64,000 nt of DNA from Torpedo marmorata (lineage: Eukaryota). The position numbers and the translations under genes were made by a program. The stretch is taken from assembly GCA_977017645.1 (NCBI GenBank), contig OZ360223.1, positions 193,316,001-193,380,000 on the forward strand. Direction: 5' to 3'. Below, one piece after another: positions 7,328 through 55,335 of the stretch. The notes under the pieces are model-generated. The model did not search any database. It was given only the letters and a program-made list of their open reading frames with translations, and had not been told where the DNA came from. Positions within the stretch are counted from its first letter, which is position 1, and each line of letters begins with the position of its first letter.

Positions 7328-7684
7328 TGTAGCGCGTCGCTACGGCTATAGCTCTGCGCATCGAGTTGGTCGTCGCTCTAGTTCTGGAGCTCAGGAGAGA
7401 GATACACACCCTCCGAGCGTCAAGACAGAACTGCCTATTCTGCCGTCGGCTCTGCCTTTTATAGGCGGGCCGAGCCTGACTGCTGCGTCACGGATGGGGC
7501 GTGGCCTAAGGCGTGACGCCCAGGATTGGTCGAGCCACGATCCATCCTTAGGGATTGGCCCGTTCACTCCTCGCCGTTGTGGCCTATGGGAACGGGCCGT
7601 CCGAATCACGTGCCGCCTGCGCGATCGCCGTGTTCGAACACGGCTCTCTGTGTCGGCCTGCGGAGTAGGTCGCGGGCTGCTACA
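7328..7684 (-). repeat. 3' LTR of the Gypsy element (357 bp)
   Basis: About 95% identical to 11430-11784 by my count (about 17 substitutions, mostly transitions, plus a 2-bp indel); adjacent PPT ggttctggggggggg; TATAAAA and two CCAAT boxes on the minus strand. Confidence 0.95.
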
Positions 7685-10600
7685 CAACCCCCCCCAGAAC
7701 CGGCGATCTGTGCGGTGGCCTTGTCCTTGGGAGGCCGCCCCCTGCGGCGTGGTATAGGGTGATTGACTGGTTGGCCAGGGTCCAGGTGTGCTGGCTTGAG
7801 TTGGTCAACCGCGACCGTTTCCTCCCTGCCGCCAACATCTATGACACAAGTGGAGCCGTTGTGTTTGATAACCCGGTACGGCCCTTCGTACGGTCGTTGG
7901 AGTGGTGGCCGATGCGCCCCTCGCCTTACAAACACATGCCTGCAGTCCTTCAAGTTCCTTGGAATATATGTTTTAGGCTGGCCGTGCGCCCTGGGCTGTG
8001 CCGGGGCCAGCGTACCCAGTTGTTGCCGCAGACGAGTCAGGGCTACCGCTGGAGTGTCCTCCATGTTCCGGGCGTCGGCCAGGAACTCACCCAGGATGAC
8101 CAGGGGTGCGCCATAGACCATCTCCGCTGCAGACACGTCAAAATCGTCTTTGGGCACGGTGCGGATGCCCAGAAGAACCCAAGGCAGTTCATCAGCCCAG
8201 TGTGGTCCTGTGAGCCAAGCCATAAGGGCCGATTTGAGGTGCCTGTGGAACCTCTCCACCAACCCGTTGGCCTGAGGATGGTATGTCGTAGTATGATGGA
8301 GTTGTGTTCCCAGGGTGTTGGCCAAAGCCTCCCACAGGCTGGAGGTGAACTGGGCACCTCTGTCCGACGTAAGGTGCTCCCGGACTCCAAACCGCGCCAC
8401 CCAAGTACTTAGCAAGGCCCTGGCACACGACTCTGCGGATGTTTCCACAAGCGGGACTGCTTCTGGCCACCTAGTCAGACGATCCATCATGGTCAATAGG
8501 TATCGAGCACCTCTTGACACTGGCAGTGGGCCTACAATGTCCACATGCACATGGTTGAACCTCCGTCGTGCCGGCTCGAATGACTGGAGAGGGGCTTTAA
8601 TGTGCGTCTGCACCTTTGACGCCTGGCAATGCATGCAGGTCTTGGCCCACTGACTAACCTCCTTACAGAGACCATGCCATACGAACCAGCTTGCCACCAT
8701 CTTAACCGTGGTTCTGATGGCTGGGTGCGCCAGGTTGTGGATCGTGTCGAAAACCCGTTTTCTTCACGCTGCGGGTATGACGGGTCTCGGCGTACCAGTC
8801 GAGGTGTCGCACAAAAGCATCTGCTTTCCTGGGCCGATGCGAACGTCCTCCAGACGGAGACCGGTTACCGCCGTCCGGTATGCAGGTATGCCGAGGTCTG
8901 CTCGTTGTGCCTCAGCCAGGGCTGCATAGTCAATGCCTGAGGCGAGGGCGTGTACTTCCAGTATGACTGGCCGAGATAGCGCATCGGCCACCACATTCGA
9001 CTTCCCGGCAATGTGTGCTATATCCATGGAGAACTCGGACACGTACCTTTGCTGCCTGGCTGACCATGGGTCCGACACTTTGCCGAAAGCAAAGATGAGC
9101 GGCTTGTGGTCCGTGAATATTTTGAACCTCCTGCCCTCCAGGAAGTATCGGAAATGTCGGACCGCCAGGTATAGAGCTAAGAGCTCCCGATCAAAGGCAC
9201 TGTACTTGAATTCCGGTGGGCGGAGGTGCTTGCTGAAAAAGGCCAGCGGCTGCCATTTTACAGCGATCAGCTGCTCAAGTACTCCCCCGACCGCTGCGTT
9301 GGAGGCGTCCACAGTGAGGGCTGTCGGGGCGTCTGTCCTAGGATGCACCAGAAGGGTGGCGTTTGCCAGGGCGTCTTTGGCGGCTCGGAAAGCCTCTGAT
9401 GCCCCCTGTGTCCATTCGATTTCTTTCTTTGGGCCTGCCATGAGGGAGAATAAGGGCCGCATGATGCCAGCTGCTGCCGGTATGAAACGATGATAAAAGT
9501 TAATCATACCGACAAACTCCTGCAGGCCCTTTATCGTTGCGGACTTTGAAAATGATCGGATGACCTCCACCTTTTCGGGTATTGGCCTGGCCCCATCCCT
9601 GTTAATTTTGGTGCCCCAGGAAATCGATGGACTCCCGCCCGAACTGGCACTTGGCAGGGTTGATTATCAACCCGAACTCCTTCAGGCGGGTGCACACCTG
9701 TCTTATATGGATGGCATGTTCAGCACGATTGCGGCTGGCTATCAGTATGTCGTCCAAATTAATGAAGGTGAACTTGAGATCCCGGCCCACCGCGTCCATC
9801 AACCTCTGGAAGGTTTGAGCTGCGTTCTTCAGGCCGAACGGCATTCGAAGAAACTCAAACAGACCAAAGGGGGTGATAATGGCAGTCTTGGCGATGTCTT
9901 CCAGCTGAACCAGGATCTGATGATAGCCCTTAACGAGGTCCACCTTTGAGAATATACGTGCCCCCTGTAGATTAGCGGTGAAGTCCTGGATGTGGGGCAC
10001 CGGATATCTGTCCGGTGTGGTGGCCTCGTTGAGACGGCGGTAATCCCCGCATGGTCTCCAGCCCCCTGCTGCCTTGGGCACCATGTGGAGTGGGGAGGCC
10101 CAGGGGCTGTCAGAACGCCGCACAATGCCCAACTCTTCCATCTTCCGGAACTCTTCTTTGGCGAGATTCAGCTTCTCGGGAGGAAGGCAGCGCGCCCTGG
10201 TGTGAAGGGGAGGTCCCGTCGTCATGATATGATGCTGAACTCCATGCCTAGGTTCCGCCGAGGAGAAATGTGGCGTCGTGATGGCAGGGAATTCGGCCCT
10301 AATCCGTGCCATCTCATTGTCCGTAGCTGCTACCGAGTGCAGACAGGGGGCAGTGAGCTCAGTTCCACTCAGGGAAAGAGTCTGAAAAGTTGTGGCATGC
10401 ACTAATCTTCGCCCCTTAATGTCCACAAGTCGGGAATTGGCCGCACCGCCGCCAGCGTGAACTTCCAGGTAAAATGATTATCCCCAAAACGGAGGGGGAT
10501 GGTGCGGGTGCCAAAAGTGCAAATATCCGAATTATTGGCCGCTCTCAGCCCTTGTCCAACCCTGCTGCTGCGGATGTCGGAGCTGGAAGGTGGAAAAACA

Positions 10601-10722
10601 CTGACTTCGGCCCCGGTATCGACCAGGAACCGGCGGCCCGACATGATGTCCTGTACACGGAGTAGGTTGTGATGCAGGCTGACCACCGCAACCATCAACG
10701 GCGGCCGGCGCAGGCTTTTCCC
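7606..10722 (-). pseudogene. Gypsy pol (protease, RT, RNase H, integrase), disrupted
   Basis: FLVDTGAEVS; [16 protein letters not shown]; catalytic YLDD mutated to NLDD; TVDAS..ELLALYLA..TDHKPL; VHVDIVGPL..SDRG..NGLVERFH; GPY motif. Contains frameshifts, a small deletion near 10430 and a TGA at 8764. Confidence 0.92.
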
Positions 10723-11387
10723 TGAAATGCACAGGGGGAACGGCATCGACGAGCCTCGAAACCCCACCGCTGGTGGTAGAAACAGTACTCCTGACCGGTG
10801 GGCTCCATCGGTTGGCGGGTCAACTATTCGGGAAGCCGCCCACTCGTTCGTCGCGGACGAGACGTGGACACTTGCTCCATTGTCGCACAGTCGACTTTCT
10901 TCGCCACCCAGAGCACATCCGCTCGGGCAGCTACCTTCCTGGGGTCACTGAAATCCGCTTCCGCGAGCAACAGCCGGATGTCCTCTGGCAATCGCTCCAG
11001 GAAAACCTGCTCGAGCAGCAGGCAAGGTCTGTGGTCATCCGTTAAGGCAAGCATGTCGCTCATGAGGGCGGAAGGGGCCCTGTCCCCCAAGCCGTCCATA
11101 TGCAACAATCGGGCTGCCCGCTCTCGCCTCGAGAGCCCGAAAGTGCAGGACAATAGCTCCTTGATGGCCACATACCTCCCCTGCTCTGGAGGACGCCGCA
11201 GGAAGTCCACAATCCTGGCCGCCGTCTCCTGCTCAAGGGCGCTTACCACGTGGTAATAGCGGGCTGTGTTGTCGGAGATTCTTCGAAGGGCGAACTGTGC
11301 TTCGGCTTGCTCGAACCATACCAGCGGCTGCGATGTCCAGAAGCTCGGCAGCTTCAACAAAACCACGTTGATTGAAGCTTGTTCCAT
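10695..11387 (-). pseudogene. Gypsy gag (CsRN1-type) with a premature TAG at 10824-10826
   Basis: KLPSFWTSQPLVWFEQAEAQF N-terminal motif; after the stop the same frame continues with CFYHQRWGFEARRCRSPC (C-X2-H-X9-C-X3-C). Confidence 0.9.
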
Positions 11388-11415
11388 CTTCAGGTCCAAA
11401 TCGCAGTTTGGACCA

Positions 11416-11428
11416 GTCGGGGTCACCA
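11416..11428 (-). promoter_or_regulatory. Primer-binding site complementary to the tRNA-Trp 3' end
   Basis: TGGTGACCCCGAC one base inside the 5' LTR; matches the first 13 nt of the canonical Trp PBS TGGTGACCCCGACGTGAT. Confidence 0.9.
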
Positions 11429-11429
11429 C

Positions 11430-11784
11430 TGTAGTGCATCGCTATGGCTATAGCTCTGCGCGTCGAGTTGGTCGTCGCTCTAATTCTGGAGCTCAGGAGA
11501 GAGATACACACCCTCCGAGCGTCAAGACAGAACTGCCTATTCTGCCGTCGGCTCTGCCTTTTATAGGTGGGCCGAGCCTGACTGCTGCGTCGCGGATGGG
11601 GCGTGGCCTAAGGCGCGACGCCCAGGATTGGTCGGGCTACGATCCATCCTTGGGGATTGGCCCATTCCCTCCTTGCCGTTGTGGCCTATGGAAACGGGCC
11701 GTCCGAATCACGTGCCGCCTGCGCGATCGCCGTGTTCGAACACGGCTCCGTGTCGGCCTGCGGAGTAGGTCGCGGGCCGCTACA
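11430..11784 (-). repeat. 5' LTR of the Gypsy element (355 bp)
   Basis: Direct repeat of 7328-7684, followed on the minus strand by the PBS. Confidence 0.95.
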
Positions 11785-13789: not shown

Positions 13790-14383
13790 TAAAGATCTGT
13801 GCTGATCAACTTACCAAGATATTCACAGATATCTTCAATATCTCACTCCAGCAGGGTGTGGTACCCAACTGCTTCTAACAGGTGTCAATCATACCGGTGC
13901 CCAAGAAGAGTGCAGTAACCTGCCTTAACGACTATCGACCAGTAGCACTTACATCAAAAGTGATGAAGTGTTTTGAAAGGCTGGTGTCAGCTCCTGTCTG
14001 AGCGGTGACATGGATCCATTCCAGTTCGCCTATCGCGGCAACAGGTCTACGGCGGATGCCATCTCACTGGCTCTACACAAAGCCCTGGAACACCTGGACA
14101 GCAAAGATGCATACATCAGGATGCTCTTTATCGACTACAGTTCAGCATTTAACACCATCATCCCCTCAAAACTGATCAGCAAACTCCAAGACCTGGGAGT
14201 TAACAACCCACTGCGTAATTGGATCATGGATTTCCTCACCTCCAGACCACAATCAGTGAAGATTGGTAAGAACTTCTCCTCCACAATCTCCATCAGTACC
14301 AGAGCACCACAGGGTTGTGTTCTTAGCCCCCTGCTCTACTCACTTTACACCTATGACTGTGTAGCTCGGTACGACAATAACAC
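13790..14383 (+). mobile_element. Rex1/Babar-type LINE, 5' part of RT, interrupted by the BEL element
   Basis: [34 protein letters not shown] and [11 protein letters not shown] motifs. Ends ..DNNT and resumes with IYKFADD at 21076. Confidence 0.92.
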
Positions 14384-15016
14384 TGTAAGAGCCGTAGGCT
14401 TGATTACTTACCTTGGTCGCGGCGCTCCGATGTTCTCGGCGGGTTACGGAGGAGTCGCGGTGTTTGTAGGCCGTGCTAGGCCTATTTAGTACTCTGCGCA
14501 TGCGCAGAGTGTGCGCGGTGGAGTGCGCGCGGTAGAGTGTGCGCGAATCGGGAAAATGTTATTGGAAAAAGATGGCAACGTAGGAGGGTGAGTGAGATCG
14601 CCATATCTTTTATTGACCGTTTGATTGAACATTTAAACTCGTTTCATTATGGTTTATAGTCATTTAAAGTCATTTAATTGAACATCTAAATATAGTCAAA
14701 GGAATCGTTTAAAGCAACTCATTAAACATCGTTATCAAGAACTGTATATATTTCGTTTAAAGATATTTAAGTCATTGAAGATTGCTGCAAGTCATGTGTA
14801 AATAAAGTTTTTTGAACATGTCGGACTTTGTTAGTAAATTAATTGAAACGCGTCAAAGACAAGTATCTCACCAAGCCTCCAAATGACTATTGTTGGACTG
14901 AAGTCACTATATAATTAGTCAATAAAAGTGGTTGTTTGGAACAGAAAATTGAAGGAAAGAAGATAGAATAATCTCTCTGTGCTTTGGACTGATATTTAAA
15001 ATAAAATGGCCATCTT
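14384..15016 (+). repeat. 5' LTR of the BEL element (3' boundary uncertain, may extend to about 15121)
   Basis: Aligns with 20389-21064 up to atggccatctt; the terminal actata recurs at 15116-15121 after about 100 extra bp. Confidence 0.85.
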
Positions 15017-15930
15017 GGAGATGCCTTGAGTTAGGGGCAGTTTGTAATCCACATCCATCTGCCATGAGTAACAGCCAGAGAGGGATTTAAAGCTTCAAAT
15101 CTAATAGTAAAGTGTACTATAAAAACGTTGGAGAAACCATTTTTGGAAAATCAGCGATGTTATTGACGGATGTTGTGGTTGAAACTCATTTGTGAATAGC
15201 AGCACATTACAGTCATCTGAAGTGGTAGGCATAAGTCTGTGGACTCCTTCTGTGTATCTTTGGCAAGTTTGAACACAGTTTGGATTTGCTGTCGCTAGTC
15301 CATTGGGGACTGTTGATTTGGCTAGTATTGTGTATGCTTGAAGGACAGTGGAACAAGACGAGTAAAATGGCCGCAACAGCCTCTGATGCAACAGCCACTG
15401 ATGTATCAGTAGCTGACGCAGCAACCGCTGATGTTGCTGTTAAGGACCAACGTATTGAAGACATGAAGATTGCGGATATTAAAAAAGAAATGAAGCGACT
15501 GAAACAAGATATAAATGGAAATAAAAAGGTTCTAATCGCAAGATTGAAGCTGGCAAAGGAAAAAGAGGCAGTTTCATTAGATGAACAAGAAGATAACAAG
15601 GAAATGGCTGAAATTGTATCATCAAATGAAGAGGATGAAGAAAATGAAGAGAATGAAGAAAATGAAGAGGTTGAAGATGCAAAGGATGTACAATTCGAAT
15701 TGGAGAAAGAGGTAAGTAAGAAGACAACATATGACCTGCAGGACGAAATACAAGCAAGTGACAGTGTCGCAAATGCTGAAAGCAGGAGAAGCAAACGAAG
15801 TTCTGGTTCGAGCTCCAGAGTTTCTCGTACTTCAAGTTCTGCATCGTCATGTACAAAGATTGAAGTTAACTTGGCCGCTCTTCTTGCACAACAAAAAACG
15901 CTTAAGGATAAACATATTTTAGAACGACAG

Positions 15931-16065
15931 GAGGAGCAGCTAAGACAAAAGGAGGAGCAGCTAAGACAAAAGGAGGAGCAGCTAAGACAAAAGGAGGAGC
16001 AGCTGAAGGAGCAGATAAGGCAAGAGAAGGAGCAGCTTAGGCAGAGAAAAGAACAGCAGGAGCTG
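15931..16065 (+). repeat. 21-bp coding tandem repeat (EEQLRQK heptads) in BEL gag
   Basis: gaggagcagctaagacaaaag three times exactly, then degenerate copies. Confidence 0.9.
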
Positions 16066-17304
16066 GAAGCAAACATTACTATTGCCAAGGCAAAAAAGAA
16101 AGTAATAGAAGGCTCAATGGTATCTGGTGCTAGAAGTAAATTATCTAAAGTGTCTAATAATAAAAGGTTATATTTAAAAAAAGAGTCACAGGAAAAGAAA
16201 CCAACCAAAAGGGTAGATATTTTAGAACCAAGGATACAAGACTTGCAAATACAAGGACAAATCTTTCAAGAGCATATTGGTTTTGAGTCACATGTACCAG
16301 TGGTAACATATGAAGACAAAGCTGCGGCTTGGGTTCGGTCGAACGATGCAGCTTCCTTGTTATTTGAGTCAAGCATCAGAAATATGGAAGAAAATATACC
16401 AGTGAGGCTTACAGATACATTACCTGCAACAAGAGAAGGTGAACAGAGCAATGTATTGTTATCAAAAGGAAGACAAAATGAAATTACTCCATCATTGATT
16501 CAGTTACAGTCTCTCTCTTCTTTACCCAAGAAAGAGATACAAACTTTTGATGGTGATCCACTTCAGTACCAATCATTTATGAGATCTTTCAAACGCAATA
16601 TTGAAAATAAATACCAAGATCGTGATGAATGTCTTTATTATTTAGAAATGTTCACAAAGGGACATCCAAAAGAACTTGTAAAGAGTTGTCAACATATGTC
16701 TTCAGAAAGAGGATTAGACAGAGCTAAGGCTTTACTAGGACAACATTTTGGCAACAAGCATCGAATTGCTTTAGCTTATATGGAAAAGCTCTTAAATGGA
16801 CATCAATAAAACAGAATGATGTAAAGGCTCAACAAGAATATACTCTATTTTTAAGAGGATGTTATAATGCCATGGAAGATATCGATAATATTCATGAGCT
16901 TGAAGTGCTTGGTAATATGCGAATCATCTTAGAAAAATTACCTTACAAGTTATGGGATAGATGGAGAAATTTGGCTTGTGATTTACAAGGAAATTACGGT
17001 CGAAGAGCTACCTTAAAGTATTTGGTAAATTTTCTTGAACGACAGGTGTACATTGAAACAGATCCAATATATGGAAATACCAGAGACAATTCAATGGGCA
17101 AAGATGGAAGGAGGTCTAACTCACAGCCTAGTCTGAAATTGAAAAGGAGTATTTTTGCTACTAATGTGTCAGTTATAAATAAAGAAAAGGACAAAGTAAA
17201 TAAGGAAAAGGAAAGTTTGCCTGCTGAAAAGAGTTGTTTGTTCTGTAAAGGTGGACATGCTTTGGAAATGTGTTTACGATTGGAAAAGAAGGATCATCAT
17301 GAGA

Positions 17305-18068
17305 TCAAATAACTGTTTTAGATGTGGCGAAGTGGAGGGAACTTTTCTACATTCAACATGGTTATGTTCTAAAGTAAAATGTTTCTGGATAGAGCGAGGG
17401 AACAGGTTAAAACAAATTACAGGTGTTACATTTCCACAGAATCCTGATTTATTTCTATTAGGGAATGTGGAAGGAACTAGACCAAAGTTGAAGTTATCTA
17501 CATATCAATTGAAATTTGTAAAAATTGCCTTAGCAGTTGCAAGGAAGTGTATAGCAGTAACTTGGAAATCAGATACAAATTTAAGCATGGATAGATGGAA
17601 TATAGAGATGTGGAGCTGTATTCCACTGGAAAAAATAACATATAATATGAGAAACAAATATGGGATATTTTTGCAAATTTGGCGTCCATATATCCAATCA
17701 TTAGGTATGAATATTTAAATGTGTTGCTCTACATCCCAGACCCTGTTGACTCTCTCAAATTCAAAGAATAAATATTGTTGAATGCCGCGCGTCGAGCCGC
17801 GGACCCAGCAGCGATCCGTTCAGATGTTTTTGATAAGAAATACCAATGCCTTCTTTTCTGTTCTTTTCTTTTAGTTTTTACTAAGGGGAGGGAATTAAGG
17901 GAGGGGAAGGGTGGAGGGTGGGCAACTTTATAGAAGGTGGGTTAAGAGAGGGGTTAGATACACTGTAATACAAACTATGTCTTTTATTTACTGGAATTAA
18001 TAATGTAAACTATGTATGTTGTATTACTGTGAGAAAATTCAAAATTTAAAATAAAATATTAAAAAAAA
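17305..18068 (+). mobile_element. L1-clade LINE 3' fragment inserted into BEL gag
   Basis: CFRCGEVEGTFLHSTWLC zinc knuckle and IPLEKITY..FLQIWRPY end of ORF2; G-rich 3' UTR; poly(A). The BEL frame KDHHE|KIAFLKEN is rejoined on removing it. Confidence 0.92.
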
Positions 18069-19085
18069 AGAAGATTGCTTTCTTAAAGGAAAATGAAATA
18101 TGTTTTAGCTGTCTGTGTAAAGGGCACATCAGTAAAAACTGCAAGAAGCGAATTAATTGTAACATATGTAAGTTGAAACGTCCTAGATTTTGCATATCCA
18201 TCAAAGAAACAAGGAATTGGAAAAGGAGCAAACAGAAACAAAGGAAACATCAGAAAACAATGTTATAACCTCGGTTCAGACAAGTGGTCTTACCGGGGCC
18301 GGTGTGGATAACTGCAAACTTTCAATAGTGCCTGTACAGGTCAAGACCAAGAAAGGGGATGCAACAGTACATACATATGCATTTCTAGACCCAGACAGCA
18401 CTGCATCTTTTTGCACGGAAGGACTAATGAACAAACTTAATATTCAAGGAAGAAGGTCAAGAATTATGTTAAAAACCATGGGATAAGAAAAGGTCATTGA
18501 AACCAGCATTGTTTCAGGCTTAGAGGTTGCTGGATTGGATGACAAAAAATTTTGTGATCTTCCAAGTTTATACACTCAGAAGACTATGCCTGTGCATGAA
18601 GGAAATATTCCTCATCAAAATTATATACATTATTTAGCCTATTTAGCTTATTAGGTTTATTTACCTGAAATTAACTCTGAGATAGAAATGCTGATTGGTT
18701 CAGATGTGCCAAAGGATTTGGAACCACAAGAAGTAATACAGAGTAGAAGGAATGGACCTTACGCTGTTAGAACCAAGCTTGGTTGGACAATTAATGGACC
18801 ATTGGAAAGAAATAATGATATTGCACAGGAACAATTAGTGATAAATATTAACAGGATTTCGGTTGTGAAAGTTGATGAGTTAAGGGAAGAGCAAAAGACT
18901 GTGAATAAGAAAATCACTTTTGAAGAAAAGAAAATAGATCAACATGAAAATAAATCAAAGGTAATTAAAACAACATTGAAAAATTATGTTCATCAGAAAT
19001 AAATGAAAATGAAGTATAAGAAGATGTTGCAAATAATACTATTGATTATTCATGTGTAATTGAATCAGATACAAGAATAAAACAA

Positions 19086-20003
19086 GTGACTGAGAACAAA
19101 TCTGAAAGTAGATTTTGTAGTTCAGAGGTTACAGCAGACAAAGTCAATGAAGAAATATTGCAATGTGATGTAAAACTGGAGAACGCAGAAAATTGTGCTG
19201 ATGGAATAAAGAAGAATGTGAATGATAATTTAATGCAATTGAATTCAGAGAACAAAATGTTGAAAGGGGAATTGGAAATAGTAGATAATCATGAAAACAG
19301 TAAACAGAAAGATTTAATTGTAAGTAAAATTTGCAAAGTCAGAAAGCGGAAGAAAAGAATAACTGCTGAAGATATGAATACAGTTATTGAGGAAAGAGAT
19401 TCAGCATTATCAAGATGTAAAAGGTTGGAGGAAGAAATTAATATTTTGAAAGAGAACAAGTTATTGGTTAATAACACAAAACAGTTGAATAAAAAAAACA
19501 ATCAAGATTGTAAATTGAATGTTCAGCTATTAACAATGCAGAAAGAAAGTGATATTGCATTGCAGAAATGTAACAAGCAAGATGAAGGAATTCAAAAATT
19601 TCAAGTTTACCACAGCAGGGTTGACAATAGAAATATCAATGTATCACATGATATTTTGACTTCAGATCAATTTATTAATTTATTGGAAGGAACTGAGACT
19701 GAATTGAAAGTTGCAAAATTGGATTTGGAATTGCAGGAAAAGGCAATAGAAACCAGAGTGGTTAAAGAGACTCGTTTATTAAAATCGAAAGGATCAGATA
19801 AATATTCAAATTCTCGTTCTAAGAGTTTAAATTCTTCACATGAGAAGTGGAATGCTGAAGAAAGGAATAAAGTGAAACGACATGCTGAAGAAGTGCCTCA
19901 TGTTAAATTCAAAAGAAAAACTGTATCTATTTTGTCTGAGGAAGATTTGAGGTTTACTGGTCGACGTTTTAACTCAAAGATTCTGGAGATAAAAGAACTT
20001 TGA
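19086..20003 (+). CDS. Coiled-coil ORF inside the BEL element containing a MIPOL1-derived segment (about 19317-19616)
   Basis: IVSKICKVRKRKKRITAEDMNTVIEERDSALSRCKRLEEEI...IQKFQVYHS aligns with recalled human MIPOL1 IVDRIYKTKECKMRITAEEMSALIEERDAALSKCKRLEQEL...IQTLRVYYS. Probably once continuous with gag-pro. Confidence 0.75.
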   Translation: MTENKSESRFCSSEVTADKVNEEILQCDVKLENAENCADGIKKNVNDNLMQLNSENKMLKGELEIVDNHENSKQKDLIVSKICKVRKRKKRITAEDMNTVIEERDSALSRCKRLEEEINILKENKLLVNNTKQLNKKNNQDCKLNVQLLTMQKESDIALQKCNKQDEGIQKFQVYHSRVDNRNINVSHDILTSDQFINLLEGTETELKVAKLDLELQEKAIETRVVKETRLLKSKGSDKYSNSRSKSLNSSHEKWNAEERNKVKRHAEEVPHVKFKRKTVSILSEEDLRFTGRRFNSKILEIKEL

Positions 20004-20388
20004 GGAGACTGTAATTATTGTGAACGATTCAACTACAGGAAACTTCTGGTTACTTGGAAAAATTATTGAGACTATTTAGGACAAAAGGGGACTTGTGCGT
20101 CAAGTTCGAATTAAAACTAAGACTGGCTTTCTAAATAGACCCATTAACAAGGTCTGCCTTCTGTTGGAGACGGAGGAACTTTGATAAATACAAACTGACT
20201 TTATTTGTTGTTGTATACTTCACAGGTACAGACTTTTGTTGATTCAGAGTTATGGTAAACTCTGGTCTTAAGAAGAAAGAAGAAAGAAGATTTGTATATT
20301 GTTTGAATGTTATGGTTATTGTTATTTATAATTGATTGTGTAATTATTATTTAAGACATTGCGTCTAATTATAATAATTAGGGGCCGT

Positions 20389-21070
20389 TGTAAGAACCGT
20401 AGGCTTGATTACTTACCTTGGTCGCGGCGCTCCGATGTTCTCGGCGGGTTACGGAGGAGTCGCGGTGTTTGTAGGCCGTGCTAGGCCTATTTAGTACTCT
20501 GCGCATGCGCTAGAGTGCCGACTGGTGCATGCGCAGTTGGGAATTGACGGCGGTGTGCGCGGTGGAGTGTGCGCATTGAGCATGCGCGAATCAGGAAAAA
20601 GTAATAGGAAAAAGATGGCGACGTTGGAGGGTGAGTGAGATCGCCATATCTTTTATTGACTGTTTCATTGAACATTTAAACTCGTTTCATTATGGTTTAA
20701 AGTCATTTAAAGTCATTTAATTGAACATCTAAATATAATCAAAGGAATCATTTAAAGGAACTCATTAAACATCGTTATCAAGAACTGTATATATTTTGTT
20801 TAAAGAAGATATTTAAGTCATTGAAGATTGCTGCAAGTCATGTATGTAAATAAAGTTTTTTGAACATATCGGACTTTGTTAGTAAATTAATTGAAACGCG
20901 TCAAAGACAAGTATCGCACCTAGCCTCCAAGTGACTATTGTTGGATTGAAGTCACTATATAATTAGTCAATAAAAGTGGTTGTTTGGAACAGAAAATTGA
21001 AGGAAAGAAGATAAAATAATCTCTCTGTGCTTTGGACTGATATTTAAAATAAAATGGCCATCTTACTATA
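20389..21070 (+). repeat. 3' LTR of the BEL element
   Basis: Direct repeat of the 5' LTR with an expanded GC-rich gcgcatgcgc region; contains AATAAA signals. Confidence 0.88.
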
Positions 21071-22011
21071 AGCACCATCTACAAATTTGCTGACGATACC
21101 ACGGTAGTAGGTTGCATAAAGGAAGGGGATGAGTCAGCACACAGGATGGAGATTGAAAACCTGGCTGAATGGTGCACCAAAAACAACCTTGCACTCAATG
21201 TCTCCAAAACTAAGGAGCTGATTGTTGACTTCAGGAAAGGAAAGCCAGAGGTCATTGGGGGATCAGAGGTGGAGAGGATGAGCAAATTTAGGTTCTTGGG
21301 AGTCACTATCTCGGAGGATCTTTCCTGGACCCAACATACCAATGGCATCGTGAAGAAAGCACGTCAGCACCTCTACTTCCTCAGGAGCTTGCAGAGGTTT
21401 GGTATGACACCAGAAACCGTGGCAAATTTCTACAGATGTGTGGTGGAAAGTGTGCTGACTGGCTGCATCACGGTCTGGTATGGGAACACCAATACCCCTG
21501 AGTGTAAAGCCCTCCAAAAGGTAGTGGATACAGCCCAGGACATTACTGGCAAAACCCTCCCCACTATTGAGTACATCTACAGGGAACGCTGCCGTCGGAG
21601 GGCAGCAAAAATCATCAAAGACCCACACCACCCAGCACACGCTCTGTTCTCGCTGCTGCCATCAGGAAAGAGGTATAGGTGCCACAAGACTCGCACCACC
21701 AGGTTCAGGAACAGCTGCTACCCCTCTACCAACAGAATCCTCAATGACAAAGTCAAACAAGAGACTCATTTAAGGACTCTTATTCGTGCACTTTATTGAT
21801 TTTTCTTTGCTCTCTGTATTGCAGTCATTTTCATTTTCAGTTTCATTCGTTACCCGTTAGCAGTTCTTTTGATTGTTTACATGTTTACGCTGTGTACAGT
21901 TTACTTTTTGCACGACCAGTTAGTGGTAATTCTGCCGCGCCCGCAGGAAAAAAGAATTTCAGGGTTGTATGTGACGTCATGTATGTACTCTGACAAAAAA
22001 TCTGAAATCTG
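21071..22011 (+). mobile_element. Rex1/Babar-type LINE, 3' part with tail
   Basis: IYKFADDTTVVG, LNVSKTKELIVDFRK and HPAHALFSLLPSGKRYR motifs; tail tctgaaatctga. Confidence 0.92.
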
Positions 22012-46391: not shown

Positions 46392-49300
46392 GAAGGGGGG
46401 TCACGTGATGCAGCAGAGATAAGAGGACGCGAGCCCCGGGGCTCCTCAGAAAAATCTAATTTAACACCATTAAAAACGTCCAGATATGCCTCCAAACTAG
46501 CTGAATAGCTAGAATATGAGCAAAAAACGAAGAACCAAACAAGGTAATTTACTCACCAATCAAAATCCAGCTTCTACAGCAGAATCCATTTCAGCAACGG
46601 GCCGTCTGTAAAACGGCAAAATGGCGGCCGCAAAAGCCTCGAGGTCTACAGAGGGATCCATCCCTGGAACGGGGCCAGCCCAAGAGGAACTGCTGAAGGA
46701 GGGAGATTTACGTGTCCACCTCCAGGAGATTAAAAGAGGTAATGAAGCTATCTCCAATAAGATGGACTCCAAAACTCCAAATCAGTCCATCTCAGGACTT
46801 AAAACTATGTTAGACCAGCTGAATTCCCGCGTGGCTGCTGCGGAGGAACGCGTTGGGATGGCAGAGGATCGATTAACGGTGATGGACTTCTTCCTTGGTG
46901 TGTTAAGGAGGGAAAATGATTTTCTACTGGGGAAAATAGACCAGCTGGAGAACCACAGCCGATATAATAATATCCGTATTGTTAAATTGAAAGAAGGCTG
47001 TGAAGGAAATGACCACGTAGAATTCTTCACTGGCTGGATCCCAGACATTATGGGACGAGAACACTTTAATGAACCGATAATAATTGAACGGGCCCATCAA
47101 GTTTTTGTGCCCAACCCATCTGTGGGCCAGAGACCGAGACATGTCCTGATACGCCTGTTGAAGTATCAGGACCGGGAAAAAATCTTGCGTGTCGCCACAC
47201 GGCAGTTGAGAGAGGACAAGGGCCCCATTACATACAACAACAGGCTCGTGCTATTTTTCTCGACCTAAGTGCAAGTTTAATGAAGCGCAGGAGGGAGTTC
47301 GATCAAGTCAAGAAAGAATTCCGATCGAAGAACATTCCATTTGCCTTACTTCACCCTGCAACATTGAGGGTCACACTCGCTAATGGAGGGAGGAGATTCT
47401 TCAAAACGCCCGGGGAAGCGACGACATTCTTGCGTGATTGGCCAGGAGGAGAATAAAATGGTGAGCGAGAGCCGATGGAGGAAAACTGGATAGGCAGTCG
47501 TGGTCCTCACGAGCTGCCATGGATATGTGCCTTAAACTGTAGTCACCTTTTCCACTTACAATGGATAGACGAGTTCCAATTTAAACTGATTAGTTTCTAT
47601 AGTAGCTGACTTTTATAGTAATTGTTTCTGAGTTGGGTGTTTTTAAATCTATTGTTGTATTCAAAATTGAATAATCTTGTATAATAGTTCATGTTTTTTA
47701 GATAGGAGTCCTGTGCCGGGCAAAATGTTTAAGAATCAGTTAGAAATGCTGTGTTTAACGAGTGCAGGATGCACATCGTCAGTGCCTTATTCGATTTTTT
47801 ACTATCTTATCACAAGAGACATATTTTTGCTTGTATAGAGATTTTACAGAGGTCATAACACTTCGGTATATATATATATGATTATTATTGATGAACAAGG
47901 TAGTGCAATTTGTCAGCTTTAATGTGAATGGGCTGAATGGACCGGTTAAAAGGAAAAGAGTCCTGGCACACCTGAAAAAAATGCAAACTGATATTACCTT
48001 TATACAAGAAACCCACCTTACTGCACAGGAACATAAGAAACTAAGGAGAGAATGGGTAGGACATGTAATATCGTCATCTTTTAATTCCAAAGCCAGGGGG
48101 GTAGCCATCCTGATAAACAAAAACACGCCAGATAACGATTGGAGAAACTATCATTGACCCGTCAGGCTGATATGTATTAGTTAATTGTCGGCTTTATTCC
48201 GGGACCTAGACACTTTTAAACCTATACGCACCTAATTACGAAGATGAATTCTTTATTCAAGATATCTTCCTTAAGGTTTCAGGGGGATGACAAAATATAC
48301 TTCAGTTTCTGTTTGGATCCTGTCCTGGATAAGTCAATGCAGACAGTATCCAAAATAAAAGCAGCCAAGACTACTTTGGCTTTCATGAAAGATTTAAATT
48401 TGACAGATATATGGAGGCAAACACACCCTCGAACCAGGGACTACTCCTTTTATTCTTCCCCCCATGATTCCCACACTAGGATTAAACTCTTTTTATTATC
48501 AACACAGTTAATTCATAGAACATTAGAGACTGAATACTTATCTAGAACCCTGTCGGATCATTCGCCTTTGACCCTCTCTATTTTGATGCCAGAAAAACCA
48601 ACTAACTCATACAGATGGCGTCTGAATTCTACCCTACTTCAAAAACCAGGATTTTGCAAATTTATTAGAGACCAGATAAAGCTATTTTGTGAGATAAACT
48701 GTCCCTCTGCTTCCAATAGTTTTATTTTATGGGACACGTTAAAAGCCTACCATAGGGGACAGATAACCTCATATACAAAAGGTATTAAGAAGAAATACAT
48801 GGCAGACATAGAAGGACTGGAAACAGAAATTCTGAAATTGGAAAAGGAGTTCCAACAGTCTGGCTCCAAGGAAGTATATAAAGTGCTTGTAAACAAAAAA
48901 CTCAAGTATAATACACTACACACTTACAAAATTGAAAAAACCATTCTAAGAACTACACAAGGATATTATGAACTGGGAGAGAAAGCACATAAAGTCTAAT
49001 ACTGGCAATTAAAAGCAGAGGAAAGTTCGAGAACAATTAATTCAATTCAAACTGAAGTGAGCTCAGTCTCTCTGATGTCCATATCTGTACTAGGTGTGTA
49101 GAGCTGCAGATTCTTAGGGACCGTGTTAGGGAACTGGAGCTGCAGATCGATGACTTCAGACTGGTTAGGGATATTGAGGAAGTCATAGACAGGAGTTACA
49201 ACCAGGTGGTCACGCCAGGGCCACGGGAGGAGGAAAGGTGGGTAACAGTTAGGAGAGGGACAGAAAAGCGTAAGGTGCCAGAGAGGAGACGTATGACTGT

Positions 49301-51072
49301 AACCCTCAACAATAAGTACGCCTCTTTGAGTACTGTTGGGGAGGACAGCATAGTTGGGGGGAGCAGCAGTGGCTGTGCCTCTGGCACGGGGTCAGCCCCT
49401 GTGGCTCAGAAGGGTAGGGAAAGGAAGAGGAGGGCAATAGTCGTAGGGGACTCCATAGTTAAGAGGACAGATAGGGGATTCTGTGGACGTAGCAAGGAGA
49501 ACTGGATGGTGGTTTGCCTCCCTGGTGCCAGGGTCTGGGATGTTGCTGCTCGTGTCCCGGATATCCTAAAGGGGGAGGGACAGGAGCCAGAGGTCGTGGT
49601 ACATGTAGGTACCAATGACATAGGGAGGAATAGAGAAGAGGTCCTAAAAAGTGAGTACAGGCAGTTAGGTAGGGAGTTAAAAAGAAGGAACGCAAAGGGG
49701 GTAATCTCCGGATTACTCCCTGTGCCACGTGACAGTGAGAGTAGGAATAGAATGAGGTGGAGGATTAACACGTGGCTGAAGGGGTGGAGTAAGGGGCAGG
49801 GTTTCAAGTTTCTGGATCACTGGGACCTTTTTTGGGGGAGATGTGACCTGTACAGTAAGGACGAGTTACACTTGAATCCCAGGGGGACCAGGATCCTGGC
49901 AGGGGTATTTGCTAGGGCTACTCAGGAGCCTTTAAACTAGAATGGTTGGGGGGAGGGAGCAAAATAGTACAGAGCAGTAAGGAGAAAGTTAGAATGCAAA
50001 CAGAGAAAGTTTGTAGTCAGTGTTTGAATATGGATGGGCAGGTGATAGAGAAGGGAAATGCTCTGGATGAAGATGAAGGGCAATTGGCAGAAAAAGTAAA
50101 TAATAATGTTGTTACTAAAGATGAGGGCAAACAGAGATTAAGAAGTGGGTATATAAATTTATTTCTAAATGTATTTTTTATTGATGAGTGAGAGCCCAAA
50201 GCCAGGTTTGCATAAATCTAGAGTGAGATGGGAGTCAGATTTAGACATAACAATTGATGAACAACTATGGTCAGATCTATGTCAGGGAAGTTTATTGGCT
50301 ACTATCAATGCCAGGTATAGATTGGTCCACTATAATTTTCTCCATCAGCTGTTCCTCACCCCACAGAAATTACACCAATATAAACCTGAGTTATCAGAGA
50401 TGTGCTTTCGGTGTGGGAGAGAGGTTGGTTCCTTCTTACACTCTACCTGGCTATGCACGAAGGTGAGACCCTTCTGGTATGACCTGTGTGACATACTAAC
50501 TATGATCACAGGAGTCACCTTCCCAGTAGACCCAGAGCTTTGTCTTCTGGGGAATTATACAAATGTTAGTAGATCACGAACTAAATTCCAAATTAAATTC
50601 ACAGAAATTGCCTTATGTGTGGCCAGGAAATGTATAGCAGTAACATCTGAATCCCATCTCCTCATTGATGGGTGGTCTTCAGAAATGAACAGCTGCATTC
50701 CACTTGAAAAGGTCACACACAGTCTTAGGAGGGGATATAACACCTTCCTAAAAATCTGGCAGCCCTATTTAGAATATATAGGTACCTCACTGGCACCACG
50801 ATAGGGTTATGACTGCTACTGACTAGCCAGCAGACCTCTGTAAATATTTTAACATTGTGATACCATCATGTCTCTATGTGTTTTACTGTACGCACTGACG
50901 ATGGGATTTTTCTGTTTCTTTTCCTTTGTTGGTTTTTTTTTCTTCTCCCTGTTTAATTGGACTTATACAGAGGGGAGGGGGGTGGAGGGATGGGTTTTCT
51001 TGACGTTTTGTATTTTGTATGGTTGTTGATTGTTAAATATACTTAAAATGATAAATAAAATATTACAAAAAA
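46392..51072 (+). mobile_element. L1-clade LINE with 5' end, ORF1, ORF2 endonuclease and C-terminus; RT region missing and occupied by a CR1 ORF1 fragment
   Basis: TSD aataaactgttta (46379-46391 and 51073-51085); 5' GGGGGTCACGTG; ORF1 LENHSRYNNIRIV..IERAH..PRHVLIRLLKYQDREKIL; ORF2 SFNVNGLN..QETH..SDHSP; CFRC..HSTWLC; poly(A). Confidence 0.92.
49056..50145 (+). mobile_element. CR1 ORF1 fragment (Zn finger/leucine zipper plus SGNH esterase-like domain)
   Basis: ICTRCVELQILRDRVRELE; AIVVGDSIV..VCLPGARV..VVVHVGTNDIG..DELHLNPRG. Confidence 0.9.
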
Positions 51073-51191: not shown

Positions 51192-54100
51192 TTTTTAAAA
51201 TATTTTATTTAAAATTTTAAATCACAAAATACATAAAATAAAATATGAAATTATCAAAATATTTGTGATACATTTCCACTCCCACTCCCACCCTCCCCTC
51301 CCCAACCCTCCCAACCCCACTAATCTAATAAAAATAAAAATATATAAAATAAAAATAGAGAAAGAAAAAAAAAAGAAATAAAAAGATAGAGTAAGGAGAA
51401 TGCCAATCTAAAAAACATACATCTATAAACTAATTCTATTGTGGAAGTCAGGTATGCCAGTAGATCCGATACCCAGAGATCTTCAAATCCTTAAACCATA
51501 TCATATTAAACCTTAAATCATATATGGGCTCCAAATTTTTAAGAAAAAATGATATTTATTACGTAAATTATAGGTAATTTTTTCAAGTGGTATACACGAA
51601 CGAAGTTCTGCATGCCATCTTTCTAATCCTAAATCTAAATCAGATTTCCAAGTAATAGCAATACATTTCTTTGAAACAGCTAAGGCAATTCGCAAAAATT
51701 CTATTTGATACATGTTTAATTTCATCTTAATACTAAATTTTCTAATATCTCCAAACAAAAATATCATAGGATCCATTGGAAATGTAATCTTAAATACTTT
51801 ATCTAAATTTTTTTTAACTTTCAACCAAAAATCATAAACTTTTGGACAAAACCATGTAGAATGTACAAAAGAACCTTCTTCTTTATTACATCTAAAACAT
51901 AAACCTGATAATGTCGGATTAAATTTCTTTAGTTTTTTAGGTGTTAAATATAATTGATGAAAAAAATTATATTGTACTAATCTATATCTAACATTAATAA
52001 TCTTCGTCATACTTAATTTACATAATTCTTTCCAGTGATTTTCATCTATTGTTACATTCAAATCTAATTCCCATTTTAATCTTGATTTATGAATTCCTAC
52101 TTTAGAAGTTTTCCTCTGAAACAATTTATACATTTGAGAAATAAATTTATTTACATCTCCTTTAGTAACTAATAATTCTAATTCATTCTGTCTTAGTAAA
52201 ATCAAACTATAACCTAATTTCTCAATCAAAAATGCTCTAATTTGATAATAAGCAAAACGTGTATTATCTAGTATATTAAATTTATCCTTCATTCTTTGAA
52301 AAGTAATGAATTTCCCAGCTTCAAAACAGTCATTAATTTTCTTAATTCCTTTTTGAAACCAAATTTTAAATAATTGATTATTAATAGTAAATGGAATAAG
52401 TCCATTTTGATATAAAGGCATCCTTGGAGAAATCATTCTTCTTCCTCCTATTTCCTTATCCGTCTTATTCCATATTTCTAACAAATGTTTAAAGATAGGA
52501 GAATTTTTCCTTCTTGTTGATATTAATTTAGAATCCCATTTATAAATAACTTCTTCTTTGTAATCTTCTTCTATATTATTTAATTCTATTTTAATCCAAG
52601 CAGAAGATTTAGTTGGATCAAAAAGTTCATTAACAAATTTTAATTGAGCTGCTTTATAATAATTTTGGTAATTAGGAAGTTGTAAACCACCCATTTCAAA
52701 ATTCCAAGTTAATTTTTCTATACCTACTCTTGCTAACTTTCCTTTCCATAAAAATTTTCTAATAATTGAATTTAAGTCTCTAAAAATTTTTTGAGGAACT
52801 TCATAAGGAATTGATTGGAAAAGATATTGAATTCTTGGAAAAATATTCATTTTAATACAATTTACCCTTCCCATTAAAGTTATAGGTAAATCTTTCCAAT
52901 TTTCTAAATCCTTTTTTATTTTCACAAATAATGGTAAATAATTTAATTTATATAAATTATCCAATTTTGTATCAATCTTTATTCCCATATATTTAATTCC
53001 TTCTTTTGCCCATTTAAATTGTGTAATTTCTTTACACTTATTATAATCCCCTTGTGATAATGCCATAATTTCACTTTTATCAGAGTTAATTTTATATCCC
53101 GATATTTCCCCATATTCTCTCAATAACGCAAACAGTTGTACTAAAGATGTAGTAGATTTTGTCATATATATCAATACATCATCTGCAAATAAACTAATTT
53201 TATGTTCTTCCGTTCCAACTTTAATACCAACTATTTTAGGATCTTTTCTAACTAATTCTGCCAAAGGTTCTATCGCCAAAATAAATAACGCTGGTGACAA
53301 AGGACATCCTTGTCTAATAGATCTAGTCAGGGGAAATCTTGAAGAAATTTGTCCATTTGTAATTACTTTAGTGGATGGTTCTTTATATATAGTTTTAATC
53401 CAATTAATAAATATGGTTCCAAAACCAAATTTCTCCAATACCTTAAATAAAAAATTCCACTCTAATCTATCAAAAGCCTTTTCGGCATCTAACGTTAAAA
53501 CTAATGGTAAATCTTCCTTCTTTTTATGTAGATTAATTAAACTAATTAATTAAACTAATTAATCTAGCTATATTGTCTTTTGAATATCTATTTTTAATAA
53601 AACCAGCTTGATCTACATGAATTAAATCTGGTAAATAGTTAGCCATTTATTTGCTAGAATTTTTGCAATTATCTTATAATCTACATTTAACAATGAAATA
53701 GGTCTATATGATTCAGTTTTCAATACATCTCTATCTTTTTTTGGTATGACTGTAATTATTGCATTTAAGAAAGTATCTGGTAATGAGTAGGTTTCCGTAA
53801 TTTGATTCAATACATCCATATATGGAGGTATTAATAAATCTTTAAACTCTTTGTAAAATTCTGATGGAAATCCGTCTTCACCTGGAGATTTAACACTCTT
53901 TAAAGAAGTAAGAACTTCATTAACTTCCCTCATTGAGAAAGGTAAATCTAAAGATTCTCTACTTTGGGTATTTAATTTAGGTAGTGTAATTTTAGATAAA
54001 AATCTAATAATTTTAGATTCATCTTGATCAATCTGAGATTTATATAAATTCAAATAATAATCTTTAAAAGAATCATTTATTTCTCGAGGTTTATAAGTTA

Positions 54101-55335
54101 TTTCCCTAGAATTCTTTTTCCTTATGGCATTTATTGTTCTAGAAGTTTGATCTTTTTTTAATTGCCATGCCAAAACTTTATGAGCTCTTTCCCCTAACTC
54201 ATAATATCTTTGTTTAGTTCTTTCAATTAATTTTTCCATTTTATATGTTTGTAATAGATTATAATGTAATTTCTTCCCAATTAAATTATTCCTTTTTTGA
54301 ATTGATCTATTTTTTTGTAAATCTTTTTCTAAGCACTCAATCTCCTTCTCTAAATTTTCTACTTCCCTAAGATAATCTTTCTTAATTTTTGCTGAATAAC
54401 TTATTATTTGACCTCTTGAATAAGCTTTTAAAGCTTCCCAAATAATAAATTTATTGTCAGTAGAATTAGAATTTATTTGTAAAAATTCCTGAATTTCCCT
54501 TCTCATATAATCACAAAAATCTTTTCTTTTTAATAAAGAAGAATTAAATCTCCAGCTGTATACAGTTTTTTCTTTTTCCGGAATTATACAAGATATTAAT
54601 AAAGGTGAATGATCAGAAATTATTCTCGCTTTATAAGATGCTTGCATTATTCTATTTTGAACCTGTAAAGACAATAAAAATAAATCTATCCTAGAATATG
54701 AATCATGTCTAAAAGAATAAAAAGAATAATCTTTTTCTCTAGGATTCAATTTCCTCCAAATATCTATTAAATTTAAATCTTTCATCAAAGTAAGAACTCT
54801 TTTAGCAATTTTAGTTTTAGCAAGTGATCTTGAAGTTTTATCCATTATTGGATCTAAACAACAGTTGAAATCTCCACCAATTAGAATATTCTCATTAGCT
54901 TCTGACAAATGTAAAAAAGAATCTTGAATAAACTGTTCATCATCTGCATTTGGTACATACAAGTTCATAAGTGTCCAGAGTTCTGAGTAAATCTGACAAT
55001 GTACCAAAACATATCTACCTGCCACATCTATAACTACCGATTGTATCTTAAAAGGTAACTTTTTATTAATTAATATAGCTACCCCTCTTGCTTTAGAATT
55101 AAATGAAGAAGCCAACACTTGACCAACCCACTCTTTTTAGTTTCTGATGTTCCGAATCTATCAAATGCGTCTCTTGTAAAAAAGCTATATCTACATTCAA
55201 CTTTTTAATATACGCTAAAGTTCTCTTTCTTTTAATCGGATTATTAAGCCCGTTTATATTAATACTTACTACATTTATTTTCTTACTATCCATCATAACT
55301 AAATTTTATCAAATTTCTTTCGATCAAATCTACCA
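51192..55335 (-). mobile_element. AT-rich L1-clade LINE, truncated just upstream of a complete but frameshifted ORF2
   Basis: TSD agtcacattcttt (51179-51191 and 55336-55348). ORF2 51513-55296 has SININGLN, QETHL, GGDFN, SDHSP, KSPGEDGF, YRPISLLN, RQGCPLSP, LFADD and CFRC; poly(A). Confidence 0.95.

Follow-up and report, generated by a model that had tools for sequence, protein, structure and literature searches.

Host transcripts in place of pol: a probable high-copy BEL/Pao family of Torpedo marmorata carrying BRCA1, Elongin A and probably circular-RNA-derived MIPOL1 sequence

What stands where the enzymatic part of pol should be in a BEL/Pao retroelement of Torpedo marmorata, where did it come from, and does it serve the element? 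The question is raised by positions 14384 to 21070 of a 64,000-nt stretch of contig OZ360223.1 (193,316,001 to 193,380,000; hereafter the window), in which a first-pass annotation had recognized a non-autonomous BEL/Pao element, bounded by long terminal repeats (LTRs), with host-like cargo instead of pol. We propose, with a probability of about 0.7, that this element belongs to a high-copy family in which pol would have been replaced, within a single reading frame, by spliced BRCA1, back-spliced MIPOL1, and Elongin A sequences, the cargo being a passenger tail that needs to be translated. The structure, the donors, the joints, the pol-bearing partner, the target site duplications (TSDs), and the pattern of selection are direct observations.

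The window element is a decayed BEL/Pao copy sited within the reverse transcriptase (RT) frame of a long interspersed nuclear element (LINE). Pol-bearing copies (L144 and L147) hold 3,164 nt between the points where the window has ~1,110 nt, which agrees with the earlier claim that RT, RNase H, and integrase had given way to ~1.1 kb. Pfam found no RT or integrase domain in the eight element frames scanned, the RVT_1 matches being confined to the LINE on both flanks, and it did find a SAP domain (E 2e-5) and, above cut-off, the DUF5641 tail of pol (E 1e-10, one internal stop). Gag and protease scored weakly, all under cut-off (DUF1759 E 1e-4 in L052, Asp_protease_2 E 0.014 in L051, DUF1758 E 0.003 in L097); window-type Gag is 84-94% and protease ~88% identical to those of pol-bearing BEL copies. 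The element shares with BEL/Pao the single Gag-protease-pol frame, Pao-specific domains (PF05380 in the partner, PF18701, PF03564), and the 5-bp TSD, whereas it differs from typical members by the replacement of RT, RNase H, and integrase, by termini in TG...TA and not TG...CA, and by a host-derived N-terminal SAP. The survival of the extreme Pol C terminus, also pointed out in the first pass, holds for the DUF5641 match itself; since this remnant lies downstream of the stop at 20001-20003 and in a different frame, it falls outside the polyprotein in the window subfamily.

The sequence that replaced pol traces to three intron-split host genes. The coiled coil matches MIPOL1 (94 proteins, the named ones nearly all MIPOL1; a bird protein at E 4e-19), the segment upstream of it is BRCA1 in 8/8 matches (E 2e-71), and the segment downstream carries an Elongin_A domain in longer subfamilies (E 7e-16). 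The BRCA1 donor lies on C61 (four exons captured), the Elongin A donor on C41 (five exons captured), and the MIPOL1 donor on C40, with exons A to J across 370 kb. Less-diverged copies are mostly 90-98% identical to the host exons at the nucleotide level with exact splice joints, and the joints printed show neither a poly(A) tract nor a separate TSD at the cargo borders. Spliced host exons thus stand in place of part of the internal open reading frame, the structure by which LTR retrocopies are recognized. The first pass had seen a MIPOL1-like module in what looked like captured mRNA; MIPOL1 is right, and the cargo extends to BRCA1 and Elongin A, with permuted exons that would come from a back-spliced and not an ordinary mRNA. 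Could the cargo instead be BEL sequence that has simply diverged, or an insertion that happened once, at this locus only? The window copy taken alone might suggest so, being only 73-92% identical to host exons and A-rich like the element; this reading is already refuted by the intron-split donors and the exon-exact matches of less-diverged subfamilies, as well as by the thousands of copies and the lack of cargo in pol-bearing partners, and we give it practically no credence.

The capture joints carry possible microhomologies of 5 nt (AAGAA), 6 nt (GACAGA), an imperfect 10 nt (CAAA-GAAAT), and 2 exact nt at the BRCA1-MIPOL1 joint. In the window lineage the cargo has moved from 37% to 44% A and from 16% to 10% C, with a strand-biased spectrum. 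No element in which BRCA1 runs on past the BRCA1-MIPOL1 joint was found, the one match among four candidates being the host gene. A second intron-split Elongin A-like gene, on C25 (L155-L159, G000:C25:175.32-175.34 Mb), was rejected as donor, with 74-77% nucleotide identity versus 93-97% for C41. The host BRCA1 is 87% identical over 127 aa to that of Narcine bancroftii. In an annotated Narcine BRCA1 isoform (P0095), the first ~190 residues replace the RING and have what we take to be the look of a retrotransposon Gag; this N terminus is probably an annotation artefact.

The MIPOL1 segment is not colinear with its gene. Its exons run F-G-H-B-C in the elements, and on through D and E in one copy, L095. 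Host exon H ends in TACTACAG before gtaag, host exon B starts with CAGGGCT after taatag, and the elements read TACTACAG-CAGGGCT, with no base gained or lost. Exons B to H total 780 nt, a multiple of three, and the H-B joint keeps the frame. Of the 780 nt, 727 are present in L095, from within F to within E, which leaves this copy 53 nt short of a full turn, and no sequence of exon A, I, or J is present in the captured stretch of the surveyed copies. Across 88 loci, the H-B joint scored at least 34/48 in 78 and 29-33 in 8 more (background 23-26), the region being missing in 2; a linear H-I or A-B joint was found in 0/88. A non-colinear joint at exact exon ends, with sequence from the exons of the circle alone, is the mark of a circular RNA (circRNA) retrocopy, and a back-spliced circRNA would be the simplest and very probably the actual source of the MIPOL1 piece. 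A linear RNA with exon repetition or trans-splicing, a genomic duplication since lost, or two template jumps on a normal mRNA would all be expected to leave the identical H-B joint; the AG shared by the ends of exons A and H provides 2 nt of homology, no circle was seen, and no paper was found for "circMIPOL1." However, two jumps would have to strike donor and acceptor exactly, the present locus has a single exon B across the 400 kb between exons A and J, and the capture covers almost one turn of the circle exons and nothing beyond them, so that a noncircular source appears quite improbable to us and the circle is retained. In another copy, a MIPOL1 H-B-F-G block stands in tandem at 100% identity (L101:6836-7937); its B-to-F joint omits exons C to E, which suggests that the block was duplicated locally rather than by rolling-circle copying.

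An autonomous partner with the same LTR ends, which the first pass had recommended looking for, does exist. A pol query gave 2,341 candidates, of which 14 were fetched, and several of these combine window-type LTR ends and the Gag and protease identities given above with RT, Peptidase_A17, and integrase domains. In the protease tree (47 rows), whose bootstrap is not fully settled and whose row old_L168 is mislabelled, being really a neighbouring window-type copy, the window-type clade (100/99) is sister to the pol-bearing partners (100/100), and most longer-cargo copies sit on a different backbone. The joints suggest an order of events. The first pol-BRCA1 joint lies at the RT end, as if RNase H-integrase had been replaced first and RT deleted later. 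L095, with BRCA1, MIPOL1, and an intact pol tail, is without Elongin A, which would then have been added later. The MIPOL1-Elongin A joint contains 20 nt, the first 17 of which are the LTR start of L168, and this suggests that a nested insertion may have served as the landing site of Elongin A.

The SAP domain is a fourth host piece, older than the pol replacement and common to pol-bearing partners. The first pass had counted it with the MIPOL1-like stretch as two host-like modules; both trace to intron-split host genes, and SAP is no part of the pol replacement since pol-bearing elements (L233, L234, L139) have it too. Older-backbone elements start with a SAFB-like N terminus, and a host exon on C68, found by protein search, stops at a GT donor directly after SAP. 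It is 87-89% identical to L182 and L189 from 38 nt upstream of the ATG, and in both copies the next 16 nt are the start of host exon 2. The C68 gene, which we take to be SLTM rather than SAFB1 or SAFB2, holds a SAP (E 4e-11) and a downstream exon with the start of an RRM (E 8e-4, below cut-off and in one exon only). It thereby has the intron-split, N-terminal SAP and downstream RRM arrangement of the SAFB family, whose members SAFB1, SAFB2, and SLTM are described in excerpts of PMC10901741 as SAP and RRM proteins repressing L1 and LTR elements. A more distant BEL at C40:64.517 Mb had no match to the C68 SAP exon, a protein search with the window-type N terminus gave no match at E up to 10 among 6,950 candidates, and PDB and Atlas searches with SAP gave generic SAP matches only. 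Two pattern searches for the host gene (7 and 1 matches) retrieved element copies, and a candidate on C44 turned out to be an element.

How large and how mobile is the family? In the 6.2-Gb source genome, 1,439 candidates were retrieved with a cargo query of 401 nt, the 40 scored being 96-100% identical, and protein queries gave 31,774, 35,451, and 28,777 candidates, which are first-look counts and not copy numbers. Back-splice-bearing copies number 5 in the 570 kb fetched for host genes, all within the 400-kb MIPOL1 region, a density that extrapolates to ~55,000 copies genome-wide (Poisson range 18,000-127,000) and that is drawn from introns, possibly atypical of the genome. By arithmetic from these counts, 30,000-55,000 copies of ~5.8 kb would make up roughly 3-5% of the genome. 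Among cargo-query copies, 38/40 cross both cargo borders (18/20 in one set, 20/20 in the other) and none has pol. The window element itself has a 5-bp TSD with one mismatch and LTRs 3.6% apart, in keeping with the TSD and similar LTRs noted in the first pass, and 15 copies have 5-bp TSDs (15/16 pairings), 10 of them perfect. The LTRs of window-type copies differ by a median of 4.0% (28/41 measurable) and those of the longer-cargo set by 8.0% (11/33), and a window-type copy within the latter set has an LTR divergence of 0.3%, its subfamily giving 40/40 scored matches at 99-100%. Natural copies keep continuous Gag-to-cargo frames of 1,306, 1,020, and 927 aa, and in L100 an open frame of 594 aa crosses BRCA1, MIPOL1, and Elongin A and ends at the native pol stop. 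Such numerous scattered copies, alike in their deleted structure and flanked by TSDs of their own, constitute a non-autonomous LTR family, and the cargo is not unique to the window locus. Altogether, the copy count, the continuous frames, the pol-bearing partner, and the absence of RT and rve domains in the window element argue for the trans-mobilised family with a chimeric Gag-protease-coiled-coil polyprotein that the first-pass annotation had suggested, trans-mobilisation itself being deduced from structure only. Five cargo-bearing copies (U1-U5, G000:C40:64281000-64500000), four of them sense-oriented, lie in introns of the MIPOL1 donor gene, so that their spliced donor exons could be mistaken for, or spliced into, the host transcript.

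Selection was followed in 55 window-type copies, 20 of them picked by protein query. Variants seen in one copy only range, by region, from nearly neutral to mildly constrained (w 0.56-0.94). Protease variants found in at least four copies are 19 synonymous and 14 non-synonymous (P 1e-4), and between host and window type the SAP has changed at 14/23 synonymous versus 16/76 non-synonymous sites (w 0.20 over 33 codons, P 6e-4). SAP and protease are under purifying selection, and the captured SAP is conserved and likely used by the element. At the 304 cargo codons that are the same in host and older copies, 29 synonymous and 79 non-synonymous changes have occurred in the window lineage, a synonymous fraction (0.27) not above that of a spectrum-matched neutral model (P 0.11). 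Fixed stops in the cargo number 0 versus 8.6 expected (P 1e-4), and indels are in frame in 13/15 shared versus 28/115 private cases (P 4e-6; row pairs reflecting one indel event were merged before counting the 13/15). The cargo frame is kept open while its amino acids drift nearly neutrally. Moreover, nine copies have in common a frameshift in the last ~30 cargo codons, and the window lineage has lost the Elongin_A Pfam domain, MIPOL1 exon D, and other blocks; the tolerated near-end frameshift and the large domain deletions fit a need for translation.

The same history could also have produced a cargo polypeptide that works for the element, as a coiled-coil particle spacer or as a decoy for partners of BRCA1, Elongin, or MIPOL1, released by the protease. 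The frame has survived four capture joints, ~110 fixed codon changes, and 13 indels, and the cargo-bearing form is commoner than the pol-bearing one (5 versus 2 matches in 400 kb). Elongin A codons lean purifying (w 0.36; P 0.015, uncorrected), and MIPOL1 shared variants, 2 synonymous and 23 non-synonymous, lean toward an excess of replacement (P 0.0125, uncorrected). The neutral overall synonymous fraction, the discarded domains, and the frameshift common to nine copies nevertheless make a working polypeptide doubtful; the frame is kept and the sequence mostly not, and nothing demonstrates a function of the cargo protein. A broader proposal, in which a BEL/Pao polyprotein would have been rebuilt from four host transcripts, with the DNA-binding SAP of a transposon-repressing SAFB-family protein as Gag N terminus and the circRNA-derived MIPOL1 coiled coil with BRCA1/Elongin A as a translated module aiding spread, is in our view unlikely.

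We propose the following model for a passenger tail that needs translation. An autonomous ancestor would first have acquired the 5' untranslated region, start codon, and SAP domain of a SAFB-family mRNA. One descendant would then have traded RNase H-integrase for BRCA1 and nearly one full turn of the MIPOL1 circle, the state of L095, before Elongin A joined the cargo; in-frame deletions would have shortened the cargo, which would also have passed onto the window Gag/LTR backbone. Capture likely proceeded by RT template switching between co-packaged RNAs, and SAP, Gag, and protease would be made in cis, while RT and integrase would likely be borrowed from the pol-bearing partner. Selection would keep translation going to near the 3' end and not maintain a given protein sequence. 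Our guess is that an early stop, leaving ~2 kb of untranslated tail, costs RNA stability or packaging in cis.

Several observations weigh against this model. DNA alone gives no means of telling a circular source from a linear RNA formed by exon repetition or trans-splicing, the argument from the near-full turn depends on one copy, and the BRCA1-MIPOL1 joint has only its 2 nt of exact homology. Most copies were picked by cargo queries, Gag shared variants are not significant versus a spectrum-aware null (P 0.06-0.15), and the Elongin A and MIPOL1 codon patterns given above fit a pure passenger poorly. Finally, none of the sequencing runs recorded as RNA contains the cargo stretch, and neither a circle nor an element transcript was seen in them. 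The stretch is present in four runs from four studies with differing organism codes (X2, X3, X4, and X8), which cover 30/30 of its bins, and two contigs span the back-splice. X2 to X4 contain no sequence from a single-copy host stretch and are thus uninformative on transcription. X8, under another organism code, has high depth over window positions 18600-20400, with variants like those of longer-cargo subfamilies and several joints skipping ~180-190 nt of the DUF5641 remnant.

The features of the window element are collected in Table 1. The LTR boundaries are corrected, both LTRs finishing in GTCACTATA, and the 3' LTR is separated from the TSD by a 105-nt leader duplicate and another LTR end (21065-21070). 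The first pass had overlooked a 764-nt L1-like 3' fragment that is missing at the same site in 20/20 other copies compared; the label L1 is our assumption from its CCHC motif. The reading frame of the window copy is broken near 16.8 kb, several times across 18.2-19.0 kb, and in the tail. The leader starts with TAATTAGTCAATAAAAG after the 5' LTR, and no tRNA genes were found in the window. The LTR start (14384-14600) is CpG-rich (observed/expected 1.5), with TGCGCATGCGC at 14495, AAGATGGC at 14569, and GGTGAGT at 14587, presumably NRF1, YY1, and splice donor motifs, respectively; by such motifs the LTR might, as the first pass had it, resemble a housekeeping promoter. The arrangement at 20960-21070 resembles a collapsed tandem element or over-long strong-stop DNA. 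A leader duplicate follows 2 of 24 other 3' LTRs, both from the tandem array L068 (G000:C42:30185820-30205659), in which at least six internally deleted copies, ~99.5% alike, stand head to tail at 3.9-kb spacing and share LTRs. Other retroelement frames in the window, recognized by translation only, lie at 7609-11441 (-), 48220-50801, and 51516-55136 (-) and comprise an LTR-type gag-pol set and L1-like ORF2 pieces.

Table 1. Coordinates of the window element and its flanks (positions in the window)
Feature	Positions	Strand	Remarks
Left TSD, AACAC	14379..14383	+	Inside LINE RT frame; RVT_1 on both flanks
5' LTR, TGT...GTCACTATA	14384..14911	+	First third CpG-rich; GGTGAGT 14587; AATAAA 14801
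Leader	14912..15366	+	Final nucleotides from 5' untranslated region of host SAFB-family gene
Start codon and SAP domain	15367..15549	+	From exon 1 and start of exon 2 of host SAFB-family gene, G000:C68; Pfam SAP; 71% nt identity to host exon
Gag: acidic, serine-rich, 21-nt repeat stretches	15550..17304	+	Frame broken near 16.8 kb in window copy
Secondary insertion: L1-like ORF2 3' end with A tail	17305..18068	+	Not a family component; missing in 20 compared copies
Zinc knuckles, aspartic protease (FLDP motif; Asp codon 18388), first pol-linker codons	18069..18889	+	Several breaks in window copy
BRCA1 fragment	18890..19317	+	Two spliced exons, versus four in subfamilies with fewer deletions
MIPOL1 exons F (part), G, H	19318..19615	+	Matched to host exons
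Back-splice joint	19615..19616	+	Host exon H donor onto upstream exon B acceptor
MIPOL1 exons B and C	19616..19760	+	In-frame 81-nt deletion spanning B-C joint
Elongin A fragment	19760..19981	+	Two non-adjacent host exons, each in part, versus five exons in subfamilies with fewer deletions; stop 20001-20003
BEL pol tail remnant (DUF5641)	20005..20184	+	Out of frame with cargo
Short purine tract	20380..20388	+	Before 3' LTR
3' LTR	20389..20959	+	Pairs with 5' LTR
Leader duplicate and second LTR end (ACTATA)	20960..21070	+	Copy-specific; see also L068
Right TSD, AGCAC	21071..21075	+	1 mismatch to AACAC

Each ingredient of this history has a precedent, LTR capture of mRNA and circRNA-derived pseudogenes being already known. 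Acutely transforming retroviruses form helper-dependent gag-onc fusions in which host coding sequence replaces pol in frame with gag. The ray element resembles them in this fusion and in its helper dependence, whereas it has no env, is amplified in the germline, has four donors, and gives no sign that the cargo sequence is selected. In metazoans, excerpts of PMC5131818 describe LTR-mediated retroposition in which partial mRNAs replace internal open reading frames through microsimilarity-dependent template switches, with multi-gene chimeras and further non-autonomous rounds; they include a mosquito case flanked by BEL18_AG and a mouse four-gene "Super" retrocopy, and cite maize Bs1 with three genes. 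As in those retrocopies, part of the internal frame of the ray element is replaced by multi-gene host RNA and the product spreads non-autonomously. The loci in these excerpts are young or low-copy, 14/21 older ones being without an intact frame, and "circ" occurs 0 times in the main text; unlike them, the ray chimera forms a dominant family of long standing that made its captures stepwise, swapped its backbone, and kept its frame. The mouse circRFWD2 pseudogenes (33 high-confidence copies with LTR-rich flanks, by a mechanism called unknown) share with it a diagnostic non-colinear exon joint, multiple copies, the lack of poly(A), and an LTR association (PMC4897178). There the LTR link is by flanking enrichment only (PMC4897178), whereas the ray joint is internal to a defined LTR element that has TSDs and microhomology joints; it shares the frame of Gag-protease, its copies are estimated in the tens of thousands, and the frame is under selection. 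Our literature search, which lay outside repeat libraries and subscription journals, so that a library entry with unrecognised cargo is possible, found no report of the ray family, of such cargos in a BEL, or of an LTR family that has multiplied a circRNA joint at such a scale. The portion of text available from bioRxiv 10.1101/2025.06.08.657570, supplements not included, does not mention the family.

The mechanism of circRNA retrotransposition was left open for the mouse pseudogenes (PMC4897178). Since the ray element preserves the switch points, the partner, and the subfamily history, it makes capture by LTR template switching directly testable, and its thousands of replicate lineages allow selection for an open frame to be separated from selection for a protein. 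In such rays, the family will mislead gene annotation as well as RNA and circRNA mapping of BRCA1, MIPOL1, Elongin A, and the SAFB-family gene. If the cargo module does aid the spread of the element, a circular RNA would have become a working part of a mobile element filling several percent of a vertebrate genome.

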